Positions 10,128 through 61,012 of a stretch of 64,000 nt of DNA are shown here, in pieces. Each line of letters opens with the position of its first letter. Position 1 is the first letter of the stretch. Location: positions 5,187 to 69,186 of the forward strand of contig CAWFAC010000014.1 of NCBI GenBank assembly GCA_963813625.1, given 5' to 3'. A model generated the notes under the pieces. That model worked only from the letters and a program-made list of their open reading frames with translations. It ran no database searches and was not told the origin of the DNA. Made by a program: the position numbers and the translations under genes. This DNA comes from an uncultured Solirubrobacteraceae bacterium (GTDB lineage: Bacteria > Actinomycetota > Thermoleophilia > Solirubrobacterales > Solirubrobacteraceae).

Positions 10128-10201
<74 letters not shown>

Positions 10202-13843: not shown

Positions 13844-13927
13844 TGCCCGGGGTGGGATTCGAACCCACATGCCCTCGCGGGCCATCGATTTTAAGTCGAT
13901 TACGTATACCTATTCCGCCACCCGGGC
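13844..13927 (-). tRNA. tRNA-Leu(TAA)
   Basis: GCCCGGG acceptor stem, ATCGA-CTTAAAA-TCGAT anticodon arm, long variable arm, GTGGGTTCGAATCCCAC T arm. Confidence 0.95.
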
Positions 13928-28056: not shown

Positions 28057-28635
28057 TCATCGTTCTGCTGCTGTCGCTGCTTCTTCTTCCACTTCGCTGC
28101 TCGAGCGCTTCGTGCAGCTGCCTTCGTTGGCAATCGGCGCGCTCAGCCCGACCAGCTGCACGTGGATACCGCTCAGGAGGTTGCCGGTGCGGCGCACGTC
28201 CACGCACTGCACCACCGGCAGCGTCCCGATCACCGTCCACGCCAGGCGCGTCTTGCCGGTTGCCCCGAACAGCGAGTACGCGGTGGGCGATTCCAGCTGG
28301 AGGATCTTCACTTCGCCCGATCGACGCAGGCGCGGGTTGCTGGCGTTGGCCTTGACCGTGGCCACGCACGACGGGCTCTGCCGGCAGCCGTGGAGCTGGT
28401 CGAGCATGCCGCTCACATCCCCCCTCGCCTGAGCCTCGATCAGAGTCTCGTCGTCGTTGCGTTCCACGTTCTCCGCCGTCAGGAACCGCGCCAGCACGGC
28501 GCTGAGGACGAGCACCAGGATGACGCCGACCCCGAGCAGCCTCCGCGCGAGGCGGCGCTGAGCAGGCGCGAGCCCCAGCCACCAAGCGTGCGGTCCACGC
28601 GCAGCCGCGGCAGGGGTGACGGTGGGGGAGGACAT
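28057..28635 (-). CDS. Hypothetical single-pass membrane protein
   Basis: MSSPTVTP..., one TM helix, four Cys in the extracellular part. Confidence 0.72.
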   Translation of the reverse strand: MSSPTVTPAAAARGPHAWWLGLAPAQRRLARRLLGVGVILVLVLSAVLARFLTAENVERNDDETLIEAQARGDVSGMLDQLHGCRQSPSCVATVKANASNPRLRRSGEVKILQLESPTAYSLFGATGKTRLAWTVIGTLPVVQCVDVRRTGNLLSGIHVQLVGLSAPIANEGSCTKRSSSEVEEEAATAAER

Positions 28636-28651
28636 CGTCCGGAGATGATGA

Positions 28652-28745
28652 CGGGTGGGCACATGTGCCCACCCGGGCAGGGTCGCATGCGACCCTGCCA
28701 CCGGCCGCGCATGCGCGGCCGGCCGGCCGGCACATGTGCCGGCCG
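28652..28745. repeat. Four abutting perfect palindromes, each centred on CATG
   Basis: 28652-28675 CGGGTGGGCACATGTGCCCACCCG; 28676-28699 GGCAGGGTCGCATGCGACCCTGCC; 28701-28722 CCGGCCGCGCATGCGCGGCCGG; 28724-28745 CGGCCGGCACATGTGCCGGCCG. Confidence 0.92.
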
Positions 28746-28746
28746 C

Positions 28747-29772
<1,026 letters not shown>

Positions 29773-29809: not shown

Positions 29810-31144
29810 TCAAGATTCTCCTCCCCGCCCGGAGTAGCCCTCGACGTTGCGCTGGCGCTCGCGCGCGATGCCGAGCGCGCCGGGCGGCACGTCCTCGGTG
29901 ATCACCGACCCGGCGCCCGTGTACGCGTCGTCGCCGACGCTCACGGGAGCCACGAGCGTCGTGTCCACACCCGTGCGCACCCCCCGACCGACCGTCGTTC
30001 GATGCTTGGCGCGGCCGTCGTAGTTGGCGGTGATCGTCGCCGCGCCCAGGTTCGTCCCCTCGCCGACGTCGGCGTCGCCGATGTAGGACAGGTGGGGGAC
30101 CCTCGCGTCGGGCCCGACGTCGGAGTTCTTGACCTCCACGAACGTCCCAACCTTGGTGCCCGCGCGCAGGACCGTTCCCGGGCGCAGGTATCCGAACGGC
30201 CCGACGCTCACCCCGTCCTCGAGCACGCAGTCCACGAGGTATGAGTGGCGAACGGTGCACTCCCGCCCGATCTTCGTGTTGCCGCGGATGGTGGTGAATG
30301 GCTCGATCAGCGTGTCCTGCCCGATCTCCACGTCCGCATCGATGACCGTCGCGTTGGGGTCGACGATGCCGACGCCCGCACGCATGTGCCGCTCGTGGAT
30401 GGCGCTCTGCGCGAGCGCACGCACGCGCGCGAGCGCCGCCCGATCGTTGACTCCCAGCACCAGCCGCTCGTCCTCTACGAGGTGCGCCGCAACCACCGCG
30501 CCATCGGCCCGGAGCACGTCGAGCACCTGCGGCAGGTACAGCTCTCCTTGCGCGTTGTGCGCGCTCAGTCCTGGCAGAGCCTGGTGCAGCGCGTCGGCGG
30601 CGAACACGAAGATACCCGTGTTGACCTCGCGTATCTCGCGCTCGGACCGCGTCGAGTCGCCGTCTGCCTTGGTCTCGACGACCCGCTCGAGCGCCCCGCT
30701 GGCGTCGCGCACCACCCGCCCATAGCCGGTCGGATCGTCGAGGATCGTGCTCGCCATCGTCGCCGCCGCGCCGCTCCGGGCGTGGGCCTCGAGCAGCCCT
30801 GTGATCGCGTCGGCGCTCACGAGCGGCACGTCGCCGGCGAGCACGACCACGGCAGCAGCGGGGTCCATGTGGGAGTCGAGCTTGGCCATCGCTGCGATCG
30901 TCGCGCCGCCGGTGCCGTCGGCGCGCTCCTGCACCGCCAGCTCGACGTCCGCGGGCAGCACGCGCTCGAGCGCCCGCTCGGGCGAGTCCACCACCACGAC
31001 CCTGCCCGCCCCCGCATCCAGAGCCGCGCGCACCGGCCACAGCACCATCGGGCGGCCGCACAGGTCGTGCAGGACCTTCGGCGTCCTGGAGCGCATGCGC
31101 GTGCCGTGGCCCGCGGCGAGGATCACAACAGTGGGCGCGCTCAC
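29810..31144 (-). CDS. glmU: Bifunctional GlcNAc-1-P uridyltransferase/acetyltransferase
   Basis: ILAAGHGTRMRSRTPKVLH, hexapeptide repeats, HLSYIGDA, NYDG. TAGCAT lies 7 nt before the GTG. Confidence 0.96.
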   Translation of the reverse strand: MSAPTVVILAAGHGTRMRSRTPKVLHDLCGRPMVLWPVRAALDAGAGRVVVVDSPERALERVLPADVELAVQERADGTGGATIAAMAKLDSHMDPAAAVVVLAGDVPLVSADAITGLLEAHARSGAAATMASTILDDPTGYGRVVRDASGALERVVETKADGDSTRSEREIREVNTGIFVFAADALHQALPGLSAHNAQGELYLPQVLDVLRADGAVVAAHLVEDERLVLGVNDRAALARVRALAQSAIHERHMRAGVGIVDPNATVIDADVEIGQDTLIEPFTTIRGNTKIGRECTVRHSYLVDCVLEDGVSVGPFGYLRPGTVLRAGTKVGTFVEVKNSDVGPDARVPHLSYIGDADVGEGTNLGAATITANYDGRAKHRTTVGRGVRTGVDTTLVAPVSVGDDAYTGAGSVITEDVPPGALGIARERQRNVEGYSGRGGES

Positions 31145-31179
31145 GACTCAGATGCTATTCGCTCGCCGCGCATCCGCAG

Positions 31180-31250
31180 CTGGGGGGCAGGGATTCGAAC
31201 CCCGATTCTCAGGACCAAAACCTGATGTCCTGCCATTGGACGACCCCCCA
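31180..31250 (-). tRNA. tRNA-Gln(TTG)
   Basis: TGGGGGGTCGTCCAATGGCAGGACATCAGGTTTTGGTCCTGAGAATCGGGGTTCGAATCCCTGCCCCCCAG, upstream of glmU. Confidence 0.95.
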
Positions 31251-55196: not shown

Positions 55197-56441
55197 CTAC
55201 TCCACGCCGACGGTGCCCTCGCCGGCGAGCTCGAACGCGCTGTGCAGGGCCTGAACCGCGTGCTCCACACGGCCGCGGTCGATCACGCACGAGATCTTGA
55301 TCGGCGAGGTCGAGATCATGTCGATGTTGACGCCCTCGTGGGCGAGCACGCCGAACACCTTCGCCGCGACGCCCGGGTGCGAGCGCATACCCGCGCCGAT
55401 GATCGACACCTTGCCCATGTCCTCGTGCGCGGTCATCTGCGTGAACGCCTCGCCGGTGAGCGGCTCGAGCGCCGCGCGCGCCACGCGCAGGTCCTCGCGC
55501 GGGACCGTGAACGAGATCTCCGCGCGCCCTCCCGCCGAGACGGGCTCGTTCTGGACGATCATGTCCACGTTCACGTTGGCCTGGGCGAGCGCCTCGAAGA
55601 TTCGCGCGGCAGCGCCCGGCGCATCTGGCACGCCCGTGAGCGTGACCCTCGCTTCCGAGGTCGAGTGCGTGACTGCTGTGATCAGCGGTTGCTCCATCGT
55701 GTCTCCTTCCGCGACCACAAAGGTACCGGGCTGCTCGTCGAAGGACGAGCGGCAGTGGATGCGCACGCCGTGGTTGCGCGCGTACTCGACCGAGCGCAGC
55801 TGCAGCACCCCCGCCCCGGAGGCGGCCATCTCGAGCATCTCCTCGAAGGACACCGCGCTCAGCTTGCGCGCGTCCGGCACGATCCGCGGGTCGGCCGTGT
55901 AGACGCCCGCGACGTCGGTGTAGATTTCGCATACCTCCGCGCCCAGCGCCGCCGCCACCGCCACCGCGCTCGTGTCCGAGCCGCCGCGACCGAGCGTGGT
56001 GACGTTCCTGGCGCTGCTGGAGACACCCTGGAAGCCCGCCACCAGCACGATGTGGTCCTGCTCGAGCGCCGCGCGAATGCGATCCGCGCGCACGTCCACG
56101 ATCAGCGCCTTGGTGTGAGACTCGTCGGTCACGATGCCCGCCTGCGAGCCGGTCAACGAGATCGCCCTATGGCCGAGGTCGTGGATCGCCATCGCGCACA
56201 GCGCGCACGAGATCCGCTCGCCGGAGGACAGCAGCATGTCCATCTCGCGCGGATCCGGCGCCGCCGAGACCTCCTCGGCCATCGCGATCAGCTCGTCGGT
56301 CGTCTTGCCCCGCGCGGACAGCACCGCCACCACGCGGTGGCCGTGCTCGCGCTTGTCCACGATCCGCGAGGCCGCGCGCTTCACGCGCTCGGCGTCAGCG
56401 ACCGACGTGCCGCCGAACTTCATCACGATCACAGAAGACAC
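55197..56441 (-). CDS. lysC: Aspartate kinase
   Basis: VMKFGGTSV, TLGRGGSDTSA, YTDVAGVYTADP, two ACT domains. Confidence 0.95.
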   Translation of the reverse strand: MSSVIVMKFGGTSVADAERVKRAASRIVDKREHGHRVVAVLSARGKTTDELIAMAEEVSAAPDPREMDMLLSSGERISCALCAMAIHDLGHRAISLTGSQAGIVTDESHTKALIVDVRADRIRAALEQDHIVLVAGFQGVSSSARNVTTLGRGGSDTSAVAVAAALGAEVCEIYTDVAGVYTADPRIVPDARKLSAVSFEEMLEMAASGAGVLQLRSVEYARNHGVRIHCRSSFDEQPGTFVVAEGDTMEQPLITAVTHSTSEARVTLTGVPDAPGAAARIFEALAQANVNVDMIVQNEPVSAGGRAEISFTVPREDLRVARAALEPLTGEAFTQMTAHEDMGKVSIIGAGMRSHPGVAAKVFGVLAHEGVNIDMISTSPIKISCVIDRGRVEHAVQALHSAFELAGEGTVGVE

Positions 56442-56451
56442 GCGCCGAGAA

Positions 56452-57120
56452 TTACACAGCGCGGCGCCCGGCGAAGGCCTTGCCGAGCGTCACCTCGTCC
56501 GCGTACTCGAGGTCCGAGCCAACCGGCAGGCCGCTGGCCAGCCGCGTGACCTTGACGTCAGGAGAGCGGGTGTGCAGCTCCTCGGCGACGTGCAGCGCGG
56601 TGGCTTCGCCGGTGGTGGTCGGGTTGGTCGCCAGCACGACCTCCCTGACCGCAACGCCCACGCCCACGCCCACGCCCACGTGCGCGTCTGCGTCGGCGCC
56701 GCTGCCCGAGGCCACGCGCGCGAACAGCTCCGCGATCTTGAGGTCCTCAGCGTCGACGCCGTCGATCGGGGACAGCGCGCCGCCGAGCACGTGGTAAACG
56801 CCCTGGTACTCGTGCGTGCGCTCCATCGGGATCACGTCGCTGGGCTCCTCCACGACGCAGATCAGCTCGTGGTCGCGGCGAGGGTCATCGCAGATTCGAC
56901 AGCGCGCCTCGTCCGTGAGGTTGAAGCACACCTCGCACAGCCCGATCCTCTCCTTCACCTCGACGATCGCCTGCGCCAGCGCGGTGGCGTCCTCACCGGA
57001 CGCGCGCAGGATGTGGAAGGCCAGGCGCTGCGCCGTGCGGCTGCCCACGCCCGGAAGCTTCGACAGCTCCGTCACGAGCCTCTGCACAGGCGGCGCGTAA
57101 GAGGTGCTCAACGGGTTCAC
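56452..57120 (-). CDS. recR: Recombination mediator RecR
   Basis: LPGVGSRTAQRLAF, CEVC...CRIC, YHVLGGALSP, EVVLATNPTTTGEATA. Confidence 0.96.
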   Translation of the reverse strand: MNPLSTSYAPPVQRLVTELSKLPGVGSRTAQRLAFHILRASGEDATALAQAIVEVKERIGLCEVCFNLTDEARCRICDDPRRDHELICVVEEPSDVIPMERTHEYQGVYHVLGGALSPIDGVDAEDLKIAELFARVASGSGADADAHVGVGVGVGVAVREVVLATNPTTTGEATALHVAEELHTRSPDVKVTRLASGLPVGSDLEYADEVTLGKAFAGRRAV

Positions 57121-60738: not shown

Positions 60739-61012
60739 GGACCGTGCACCCCTCGTCGAGACCCACAGCACCCGGCGCAGATCGCCGCCCACGACTCCGA
60801 TCCGGGAGCTCCCGCTGCGCCTGCCGGTGGTCGCTTAAGGCTGCTTCCTTCCGGACCTGACCTGATTCGCAAGCCGACACCGCGCGGGACCCGGACCATC
60901 GACGCCCCGAGCGACGGAGCGACCGGGACCGGAAACCCTCGGAGGGGAATTCAGCCCCGCTAGAGCGGATTGCGGATACAGGGCACCGCTACCTCCCCGC
61001 CTAGCACGGTCC
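60739..61012 (-). ncRNA. ffs: Signal recognition particle RNA, large Alu-containing type
   Basis: 5' GGACCGTGCTAGGCGGGGAGGTAGCGGTGCCCTGTATCCGCAATCCGCTCTAGCGGG (Alu), helix 8 TCAGGTCCGGAAGGAAGCAGC, 3' GGTGCACGGTCC pairs with the 5' end. TACGAT -10 upstream. Confidence 0.93.

Follow-up and report, generated by a model that had tools for sequence, protein, structure and literature searches.

Four perfect palindromes with a shared CATG centre lie end to end directly behind the prs gene of an uncultured Solirubrobacteraceae bacterium, and their arrangement raises the question of what kind of sequence they are: an assembly error, a signal that serves this operon, or one copy of something more widespread. 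A first-pass annotation, made from the letters alone, described the palindromes and offered several possible identities. Below, the window means the whole 64-kb stretch of DNA that was analysed.

Results

Four adjacent palindromes follow prs

Direct reading and an exhaustive palindrome scan both find that positions 28652-28745 of the window are made up of four perfect palindromes of 24, 24, 22, and 22 bp, with gaps of 0, 1 (A28700), and 1 (C28723) nt between them. In plus-strand order their centres are ACATGT, GCATGC, GCATGC, and ACATGT, all of the form RCATGY, exactly as the first-pass annotation had described them. The units are numbered here in the orientation of the element (Table 1). No other palindrome of 18 bp or more is present in the window; the longest elsewhere in the 64 kb measures 16 bp, and the array itself contains two further 14-bp palindromes formed by GGCC/CCGG runs. 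A relaxed scan of the window (8-bp arms, up to two mismatches, CATG loop) found no second array. Because first-order Markov simulations that preserve dinucleotide composition give an expectation of 0.37 palindromes of at least 20 bp per 64 kb, a single long palindrome in the window would be unremarkable. Four abutting palindromes with a common centre are not a product of chance, a judgement already made in the annotation that these numbers bear out.

Table 1. Positions in the window of the array units, their junctions, and the neighbouring genes
Feature	Position	Strand	Description
Unit 1	28724..28745	-	22-bp perfect palindrome CGGCCGGCACATGTGCCGGCCG, 9-bp stem with CATG loop
Unit 2	28701..28722	-	22-bp perfect palindrome CCGGCCGCGCATGCGCGGCCGG
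Unit 3	28676..28699	-	24-bp perfect palindrome GGCAGGGTCGCATGCGACCCTGCC
Unit 4	28652..28675	-	24-bp perfect palindrome CGGGTGGGCACATGTGCCCACCCG
3' tail of the element	28644..28651	-	minus-strand sequence TCATCATC
5' junction	28746..28758	-	final prs codons cag-ctg-TTC-TGA plus 1 nt (G)
tRNA	31180-31250	-	
glmU (putative)	29810-31144	-	identified from sequence motifs
prs	28747..29772	-	ribose-phosphate pyrophosphokinase, 341 aa, upstream gene
192-aa ORF	28057..28635	-	downstream gene, N-terminal hydrophobic segment, without Pfam family
rplY/L25	27352-28026	-	

The array is predicted to fold into four hairpins with 9-10-bp stems and CAUG or CATG loops, at -90 kcal/mol as RNA (z = -6.9) and -58 kcal/mol as DNA (z = -8.6). 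On the minus strand the gene order is tRNA, glmU, prs, array, a 192-aa ORF, rplY/L25, and, further on, an mfd-sized ORF. The prs stop codon lies 1 nt from the array and the ATG of the next ORF 16 nt after it, within a prs-ORF spacer of 111 nt. The placement of the array right after the prs stop was therefore correct, but rplY, which the annotation took to be the next gene, is separated from it by the 192-aa ORF. The start of this ORF has no obvious Shine-Dalgarno sequence, no T run lies behind the array, and simple scans for terminators and promoters came back empty. Across the whole window no Rfam family matched at its gathering score. Weak matches in the array region (E up to 10), the best of which is RsmW (26.6 bits; gathering score 52), were rejected as chance resemblance among multi-hairpin structures.

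A cluster of palindromes could also have been created by a fold-back chimera or another assembly artefact. Palindromes break unitigs, and Logan contigs identical to the window stop at 28616 and restart at 29230, with the break on both sides of the array; the best-matching sequencing run holds 25% of the sampled window words. A fold-back would, however, yield one long inverted duplication and not four different short palindromes, and peat contigs of run X2 align over 28637-28770. The same architecture is found in two relatives, L006 (Nanopore) and L007 (Illumina), and recurs in independent assemblies from various projects and assemblers, both Illumina and Nanopore and more than 60 in all, so that the arrays as a class are not artefacts. 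For the window, we consider the probability of an artefact to be negligible.

Arrays and empty sites near glmU and prs in relatives

A Prs protein search among GTDB species representatives returned 80 loci from Solirubrobacteraceae or other Solirubrobacterales MAGs with 82-95% Prs identity, the window's own genome not being among them, and 1.65 Mb of this sequence was examined. Nine of the 80 loci carry arrays of three to six CATG-centred perfect palindromes of 20-26 bp. In the two MAGs L006 and L007 the array follows prs, as it does in the window, and has orthologous units, of which window unit 4 is missing. The other seven (L017, L019, L027, L034, L039, L041, and L044) have it between tRNA-Gln and glmU. 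Both sites are empty in the majority of the Prs-anchored relatives, some of which have the prs stop running directly into the next gene, and array-less alleles on metagenome contigs have the prs stop joined directly to the downstream sequence.

Orthologous arrays have gained, lost, or replaced whole units, and the arrays of L039, L041, and L044 show differences at the 5' end. At L029, a hybrid remnant, CGGCGCATGTGCCG, is followed by the same GTCATCATC tail and looks as if two units had been fused by a deletion from one CATG core to the other. All clusters of three or more adjacent perfect hairpins in the 1.65 Mb are CATG arrays. No array was found in the approximately 1.6 Mb of Prs-anchored flanks outside the two glmU-prs sites, which suggests that the copy number per genome may be low, or the density modest.

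Homologous arrays at unrelated loci

Metagenome contigs were scanned with the pattern CATGYGN{15,18}CRCATGYGN{15,18}CRCATG, which was built from the core C-R-CATG-Y-G and the 23-26-nt period of the known arrays. At least 120 stretches matched, of which at least 54 are true arrays of three to eight perfect palindromes, all of them on contigs of 65-75% GC; what else matched was either simple repeats rich in CATG or chance hits on contigs of lower GC. A search of relatives for clustered CATG palindromes, which the first-pass annotation had proposed, has thus yielded nine of 80 loci and at least 54 metagenome arrays, and the copy in the window is not a singleton.

Among the matches listed (at least 54 arrays), none is near glmU, prs, or tRNA-Gln. 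Arrays at non-homologous loci resemble each other as much as the orthologous pair L006 and L007 do. Synteny with other parts of the window was found for two of the loci, L105 and L098; the array of L098 separates a stop codon from the start of the following gene (whose product begins ...VMKFGGTSVADAERIKRAA), and its site corresponds to a 39-nt spacer at 56429-56467 of the window. A minority of contigs have a taxon, and the names given by NCBI to LeuRS and LysA proteins of array-bearing contigs are those of Solirubrobacteraceae or Solirubrobacterales MAG proteins.

The same pattern gave 14 matches in viral contigs, none of them palindromic, and when the array was compared by BLAST with 72,556 plasmids, nothing but two chance matches in mycobacterial eccCa came up. 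When the ORFs around the arrays (at least 54) were clustered all against all, no transposase or transposase-like recurrent neighbour appeared, and the annotation's suggestion of a nearby RAYT/TnpA-like gene found no counterpart among them. Among the listed arrays a neighbour recurs at one orthologous site only, where it is an acyl-CoA dehydrogenase.

The array is a defined, oriented module

Sixty-four arrays with 268 units underlie the following description. The element consists of three to eight abutting units, each a perfect palindrome of 20-26 bp with GC-rich 9-11-bp arms, which follow one another with a period of 23-26 and gaps of 0-3 nt. The unit core is C-R-CATG-Y-G, in which an R:Y pair closes the loop and a C:G pair comes next. 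The loop is CATG in 263 of the 268 units (exceptions are CACG, CATA, and CGTG), and the only CTAG centre seen belongs to a perfect unit in L044. The arms differ both among units of one array and among arrays, and the constant part is this core only.

Units also differ in type according to their position. The typical first unit is CCGGnCGGCRCATGYGCCGnCCGG, with the core GGCRCATGYGCC, and unit 1 of the window agrees with this core. The typical last unit has the core GCCGCATGCGGC and takes the form GGCAGGGyC..., GACnnnGCC..., or GACnnnGCCGCATGCGGCnnnGTC. The type of window unit 3 occurs at the unrelated loci L086, L187, and L177 as well, and its GGCAGGGCC variant in L101, L116, L131, L136, and L174. 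Behind last units of the GGCAGGG type, the tail TCATCAT, TACATCAT, or CTCATCAG is found at unrelated loci, and the window shares such a tail: its TCATCATC also stands behind the arrays of L006, L007, and L029 and of the unrelated locus L136, with the related tails TACATCAT in L131 and CTCATCAG in L177.

For 46 arrays the orientation was set from the unit cores alone and the flanks were then read. The 5' flank ends in G-Y-T-G-T-T (G at -3 in 31/46, T at -2 in 29/46, T at -1 in 30/46), and the 3' flank begins with T-W-C-C (C at +3 in 32/46, G at +2 in 1/46). In the window, the GTT(C) typical of the 5' flank falls within the end of prs, 5 nt from the array. Because the unit types are position-specific and the flanks are conserved and asymmetric, the array is a defined, oriented module and not a loose heap of hairpins.

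No consistent target-site duplication or terminal inverted repeat was found among the arrays; the first and last units differ, the flanks are asymmetric, and a TT/TT match between flanks is present in only 3 of the 26 arrays with a 5'-flank TT (manual count). The insertion in LysA, a single event, is flanked by the 9-nt near-repeat TCTTTCCAG / TCTTCCCAA. A MITE was rejected on account of the missing terminal inverted repeats and target-site duplication, and a CRISPR array because there are no spacers, the units being 0-3 nt apart and unlike one another in sequence. The idea that the 3' tail is a -10 promoter element was likewise discarded: TACCAT stands 7 nt before a GTG in L039 and L041, and elsewhere the sequence is TTCCAT or TCATCAT.

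Orientation relative to genes and the case for termination

Flanking genes were classified by a local codon-position test. Ten arrays lie between convergent genes, nine lie between co-directional genes in the same orientation as these, eight between co-directional genes in the opposite orientation, and one between divergent genes; for 36 arrays the flanks were classified only in part. Since co-directional arrays are divided nine to eight between the two orientations and ten others lie between convergent genes, the orientation of the array is not tied to transcription. Coding frames that end before an array have their stop codon within approximately 60 nt of the array end, mostly within 0-42 nt. 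A long ORF called across the array of L101 proved to be an antisense mis-call by a GC3-based gene caller.

The closeness of the flanking stops to the array ends (0-42 nt) and the ten convergent positions are what one would expect if hosts selected the arrays as hairpin-cluster terminators or mRNA 3'-end stabilisers, for glmU-prs here and for tRNA-Gln in relatives, with palindromy serving both of two convergent genes. The predicted fold is very stable, and a perfect palindrome gives the same RNA hairpin in either direction. Hairpin clusters have been proposed as intrinsic terminators that do not need U tracts (PMC8355165), and the arrays are like these clusters and the I-shaped terminators without U tracts in placing stable hairpins no more than 80 nt from a stop, with the U tract dispensable (PMC8355165): the window array follows its stop by 1 nt, and many others by 0-42 nt, within the approximately 80 nt expected. 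The U-rich tract of canonical terminators is absent from CATG arrays, however, and no T/U run follows the last hairpin, where the 3' flank is T-W-C-C. At L039 and L041, the array abuts the TACCAT box 7 nt before the GTG of glmU, which would fit an insulator before a leaderless-type promoter. Terminator hairpins show no homology from one locus to another, and neither their loops nor their flanks are conserved. The ordinary single hairpins of the window have loops that vary. Termination leaves the fixed CATG loop, the position-specific units, the asymmetric flanks, and the homology between unrelated loci unexplained. Further points against termination are that G·U pairs, which RNA stems tolerate, are not enriched, and that arrays occur inside the reading frames of LeuRS, LysA (in sense orientation), and ABC-F proteins in many lineages. 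These in-gene copies only weaken the explanation, because ribosomes could suppress termination within ORFs. On balance, we consider termination or stabilisation a rather unlikely reason for the arrays. A signal dedicated to processing or stabilising the glmU-prs transcript, as the annotation had suggested, fails to account for arrays at unrelated loci, in both orientations, and within LeuRS and LysA. The operator array that it also listed is unlikely, given that 8 bp per unit are conserved and that copies lie inside coding sequences.

Palindromes within reading frames

Four of the 64 arrays are in frame inside genes, with Pfam domains on both sides. Two are in LeuRS (L139 and L177), between the catalytic and anticodon-binding domains; one is in LysA, the DAP decarboxylase (L145), within the PLP-binding domain; and one is in an ABC-F ATPase (L121), behind the second ABC domain. 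Homologue DNA contains three to four perfect CATG palindromes in frame in both proteins examined, L215 and L216 for LeuRS and L217 and L218 for LysA. The LeuRS linker has 37 aa in proteins that lack the insert, compared with 66-82 aa in those that contain it. Among 120 clusters of LysA homologues, 77 have an array-encoded linker of at least 29 aa with xAHAPxG, xAHVRxG, or PHAA motifs, and 38 have a short linker of 13-23 aa. The LysA array is in sense orientation, and P0121 is annotated at NCBI as one continuous LysA protein of 464 aa.

The coding copies keep the flanks of the family, with TTT before and TTCC behind the array in LysA and GAACAG (complement of CTGTTC) adjoining it in LeuRS. From the homologue searches, the insertions in LeuRS and LysA are old and widespread. 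In these copies CAT is read as His, and the arms differ between lineages. As all three independent coding insertions (3/3) use the His frame, the constraint is on the nucleic acid and not on the peptide.

Arms change in mirrored pairs

Mismatches affect 12 of 2144 arm pairs (four G·T, three A·C, and five other), and these pairs show no excess of the G·U type on either strand. Between L086 and L106, approximately ten changes are mirrored and none is unmirrored, as read by eye from the printed sequences. L185 has a half-converted pair (T·G) at a position where L096 is fully mirrored to T:A. A gap-free alignment of 15 three-unit arrays was used for covariation, since MAFFT had shifted L081 by one unit. 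In this alignment, 25 of 30 pairs have changes on both sides, and the covariation score is 0.85, compared with 0.21 for shuffled and at most 0.13 for slid partners. Because the 15 arrays were selected for perfect palindromy, their 100% pairing is given by construction, and the covariation alone is informative. With that limit on how the subset is to be read, the covariation analysis for which the first-pass annotation called gave a positive result.

Conservation of the loop and its two closing pairs with free arms would also suit a multivalent binding platform of the host, on which a CsrB-like sponge partner, a nucleoid protein, or gyrase acts at the CATG loop or the CRCATGYG duplex, or cruciforms that buffer supercoiling between transcription units, where the arrays sit. 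Watson-Crick symmetry on both strands without a G·U excess is what cruciform or duplex-symmetric recognition requires; the likeness to RsmW mentioned above is weak and architectural only. In a genome of 69% GC, palindromes that lack a spacer and have an A·T centre should favour extrusion, but GC stems of 9-10 bp are short for cruciform extrusion in vivo. We know of no candidate protein for CATG-hairpin binding, and no association with a neighbouring gene is seen among the listed arrays. A platform would not need the polarity of the arrays and their flanks, and neither the coding copies nor the patchiness among close relatives is what one would expect of a function that the host requires. Such a platform is, in our assessment, distinctly improbable.

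Discussion

A dispersed family of hairpin arrays

Overall, the CATG arrays form a dispersed, polar, homologous family with presence/absence polymorphism, occurrence in either orientation, copies within genes, mirrored arms, and a fixed loop. We read the palindromes of the window as one copy of this family, which belongs to the Solirubrobacterales (Thermoleophilia, Actinomycetota), and the family itself as selfish, non-autonomous palindromic DNA comparable to REP/BIME sequences and to the Rickettsia palindromic elements (RPEs), and we give this reading a probability of roughly 60%.

REP/BIME sequences (REPINs) of Proteobacteria are mobilised by RAYT transposases of the Y1 HUH type, whose single-copy gene usually has REPs on its flanks. 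REP/BIME sequences, for which roles in termination, mRNA stability, and supercoiling have been proposed, share with the CATG arrays short GC-rich palindromes in clustered mosaics, a position mostly after genes in convergent or co-directional spacers, and a patchy distribution among relatives (PMC3733652, PMC3116915). With units of 20-26 bp in groups of three to eight, the arrays fall within the REP/BIME definition of short (20-40 bp), clustered, mainly extragenic units. REP units, however, have an arm sequence common to the family, form imperfect palindromes, and are tagged at one end with GTAG or CGTC (PMC3733652), whereas CATG arrays have variable arms, perfect palindromes, and a conserved 8-bp centre only, and run head to tail with gaps of 0-3 nt. 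Such a tag is absent from the units; CGTC turns up in 3 of 46 last units, and GTAG is confined to a small number of 5' flanks. Among the identities that the first-pass annotation had offered, a REP-like unit comes closest, in that the family is dispersed and varies in presence, but the unshared arms, the lack of a tag, the perfect palindromy, and the absence of a RAYT among the neighbours seen do not agree with it. A report of a REP family in Solirubrobacterales was not found in the literature searched.

Integron attC sites are recognised by their folded structure and vary in sequence between sites; they are imperfect palindromes, in which extrahelical bases define the recombined strand, and they form cassette arrays next to an integrase. 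The likeness of the CATG arrays to attC is confined to the structure-based recognition that we propose and to the varying sequence of the sites; extrahelical bases, an integrase, and cassettes are not seen.

RPEs are single elements of 100-150 bp with a conserved sequence. To our knowledge, there is no report of in-gene RPE copies that stay perfectly palindromic while their sequence changes. CATG arrays and RPEs are alike in that they are palindromic, lie in frame in essential genes as well as between genes, encode a tolerated peptide, and are inherited with the gene; the insertions in LeuRS, LysA, and ABC-F are of this kind, being in frame with the ORF and the flanking domains retained. Descriptions of RPEs set them apart from the CATG arrays, which are strings of hairpins and differ in phylum, GC content, and architecture. 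Rickettsia palindromic elements are mentioned in PMC1779305. The coding palindromes of Nematomorpha mitochondria are likewise perfect inverted repeats in translated genes and strike a compromise between structure and protein, but they are single repeats of up to 284 bp in conserved protein regions of an animal organelle (PMC6649704), whereas CATG arrays are short modular units in variable linkers, and the family is mainly intergenic.

A model for spread and maintenance

Similarity between non-homologous loci points to transposition of the arrays. In our model, the element would spread as DNA with the help of a trans-acting, structure-specific enzyme that reads the folded hairpin, its CATG loop, and the R:Y and C:G closing pairs; a candidate is an HUH/Y1-type enzyme, by analogy with REP/RAYT and IS200/IS605. 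Because the unit and its loop are palindromic, both strands would present the same hairpin. The arms are probably kept Watson-Crick perfect by hairpin-templated correction, that is, by template switching in quasi-palindromes, which makes imperfect repeats perfect and produces mirrored changes in one step (PMC7202029, PMC8794818). Under such correction, a change in an arm would be either reverted or mirrored, which would explain why ancient copies are still perfect and why changes are mirrored with no G·U intermediate. Template switching is a general mutational process and not an element, and it leaves the CATG centre, the polarity, and the dispersal unexplained. CATG in particular needs an explanation of its own, because correction alone would allow drift to other 4-nt palindromes; the centre may be held by selection or by a recognition step.

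In the window, the element would have been inserted or retained as a passenger in the prs-ORF spacer. Its four stable hairpins on the operon transcript could act as a barrier to 3'-exonucleases, a partial terminator, or an insulator before the next start codon. From the predicted fold, such an effect on the prs operon is plausible as a side effect and not as the reason for the element.

The near-universal perfection of old copies, including those in genes, is unlike the usual decay of selfish DNA and requires either correction or a host function for each copy. A more far-reaching version, which we think unlikely, is that a dedicated enzyme system of the Solirubrobacterales maintains and perhaps writes the arrays, reading CATG-looped hairpins alike on both strands (for example by HUH-type loop nicking or another structure-specific nuclease or recombinase combined with templated repair). 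The array would then be a self-symmetrising element whose copies remain perfectly palindromic over long spans of evolution, essential genes included, and which the host may have recruited as an orientation-independent intergenic module; the system would represent a new mechanism of concerted evolution and of bacterial coding palindromes.

Implications

No description of CATG-hairpin arrays was found in the full-text literature searched, and with the negative Rfam search this agrees with the remark in the first-pass annotation that no named element has this form. The combination of perfect palindromes, loop identity, polar arrays, and coding copies that are palindromic too is not one that we have found described. 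If the reading given here is correct, the arrays would serve as a marker in MAG curation and gene calling, since ORFs are called across them and unitigs break there, and would be a candidate for a compact, orientation-independent RNA or DNA structural module in the synthetic biology of high-GC hosts. They would also provide a large natural data set on how palindromes are maintained, whether by template-switch correction, selection, or an enzyme, and would show that two essential enzymes, LeuRS and LysA, can accommodate structured palindromic DNA in the form of linker peptides and pass it on. The Solirubrobacterales, which are very common and little-studied soil Actinomycetota, would then carry palindromic repeats with a logic unlike that of REP/BIME, in which the identity of a unit resides in the hairpin loop and its closing pairs and the arms evolve freely but always in mirrored fashion.

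Surroundings of glmU and tRNA-Gln

A TAGCAT hexamer (or TAGAGT or TAAAGT) is conserved 6 to 8 nt 5' of the GTG or ATG start of glmU, and on sequence grounds its spacing from the start is that of a predicted leaderless-mRNA promoter layout. In two of the Prs-anchored loci of Solirubrobacterales relatives, L039 and L041, the box reads TACCAT and directly adjoins the array of CATG-centered palindromes.

Eight of these loci (L003, L010, L014, L028, L029, L034, L042, and L069) carry an insert of ≈840 to 1070 nt that separates tRNA-Gln from glmU and encodes a small gene. The insert starts with GAACATATGTTC or GAACATGTGTTC, located within the first ≈40 nt 3' of the tRNA, and both sequences are similar to the LexA/SOS box (GAAC-N4-GTTC). 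The insert looks like a putative SOS-regulated cassette at a hot spot beside the tRNA. The 3' end of tRNA-Gln (...cctgctccccag) is present as a second copy past the tRNA in L017 and in L050 (≈100 nt beyond tRNA-Gln), and this repeat resembles an att-type scar left by an integrated element.

Other palindromes and inverted repeats

In L007, the prs stop is separated from the CATG array by an AT-rich inverted repeat, AGATCGTTACA-N19-TGTAACGATCT, that contrasts with its GC-rich neighborhood and may be another small insertion. Another perfect palindrome, ATGCCCCCCGCGCGCGCGGGGGGCAT, recurs in several genomes, reaching 34 bp as CGCGATGCCCCCCGCGCGCGCGGGGGGCATCGCG, and may represent a further family of palindromic repeats. 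The Prs-anchored loci also share two conserved perfect palindromes of 18 bp, GTGATGGCGCGCCATCAC and CTCGTCGTGCACGACGAG, whose offsets are broadly alike from locus to locus; these could be either operator-like sites or part of conserved coding sequence.

Coordinates of features in the window and in Prs-anchored loci
Feature	Location	Positions	Remark
glmU upstream hexamer	window	31145-31179	minus strand; equivalent position in most of L001-L080
Large SRP RNA (bacterial)	window	60742-61009	Rfam annotation; ordinary
Two further tRNA genes	window	10128-10201; 13844-13927	Rfam annotation; ordinary
Insert start (example)	L034	7452-7560	
Second tRNA-Gln 3' end	L017	8280-8300	
AT-rich inverted repeat	L007	11027-11068	
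ATGCCCCCCGCGCGCGCGGGGGGCAT/CGCGATGCCCCCCGCGCGCGCGGGGGGCATCGCG	L051	2460-2485	
ATGCCCCCCGCGCGCGCGGGGGGCAT/CGCGATGCCCCCCGCGCGCGCGGGGGGCATCGCG	L059	3038-3063	
ATGCCCCCCGCGCGCGCGGGGGGCAT/CGCGATGCCCCCCGCGCGCGCGGGGGGCATCGCG	L056	1075-1094	
ATGCCCCCCGCGCGCGCGGGGGGCAT/CGCGATGCCCCCCGCGCGCGCGGGGGGCATCGCG	L066	2902-2927; 12733-12766	twice
GTGATGGCGCGCCATCAC/CTCGTCGTGCACGACGAG, first position set	L004; L015; L040; L044; L047	1201; 1895; 2214; 2261; 2150	
GTGATGGCGCGCCATCAC/CTCGTCGTGCACGACGAG, second position set	L017; L027; L040; L075	12103; 16770; 12896; 11160	

In-frame arrays in LeuRS and LysA

Gene calling split LeuRS into two or three genes in L215 and L216, both contigs of Nanopore metagenome-assembled genomes, probably owing to assembly frameshift errors; the array-bearing part is in frame despite the split calls.

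Compared with the array-encoded LysA linker of the metagenome locus L145, the homolog P0122 has no array units, yet the extension SSSKGEG downstream of them is still there. The homologs P0186 and P0221 retain one hybrid PAHAA unit. Judged from these sequences, the array seems to have been secondarily lost or to have collapsed in some LysA homologs, and the linker forms of the three proteins suggest deletion via recombination between CATG cores.
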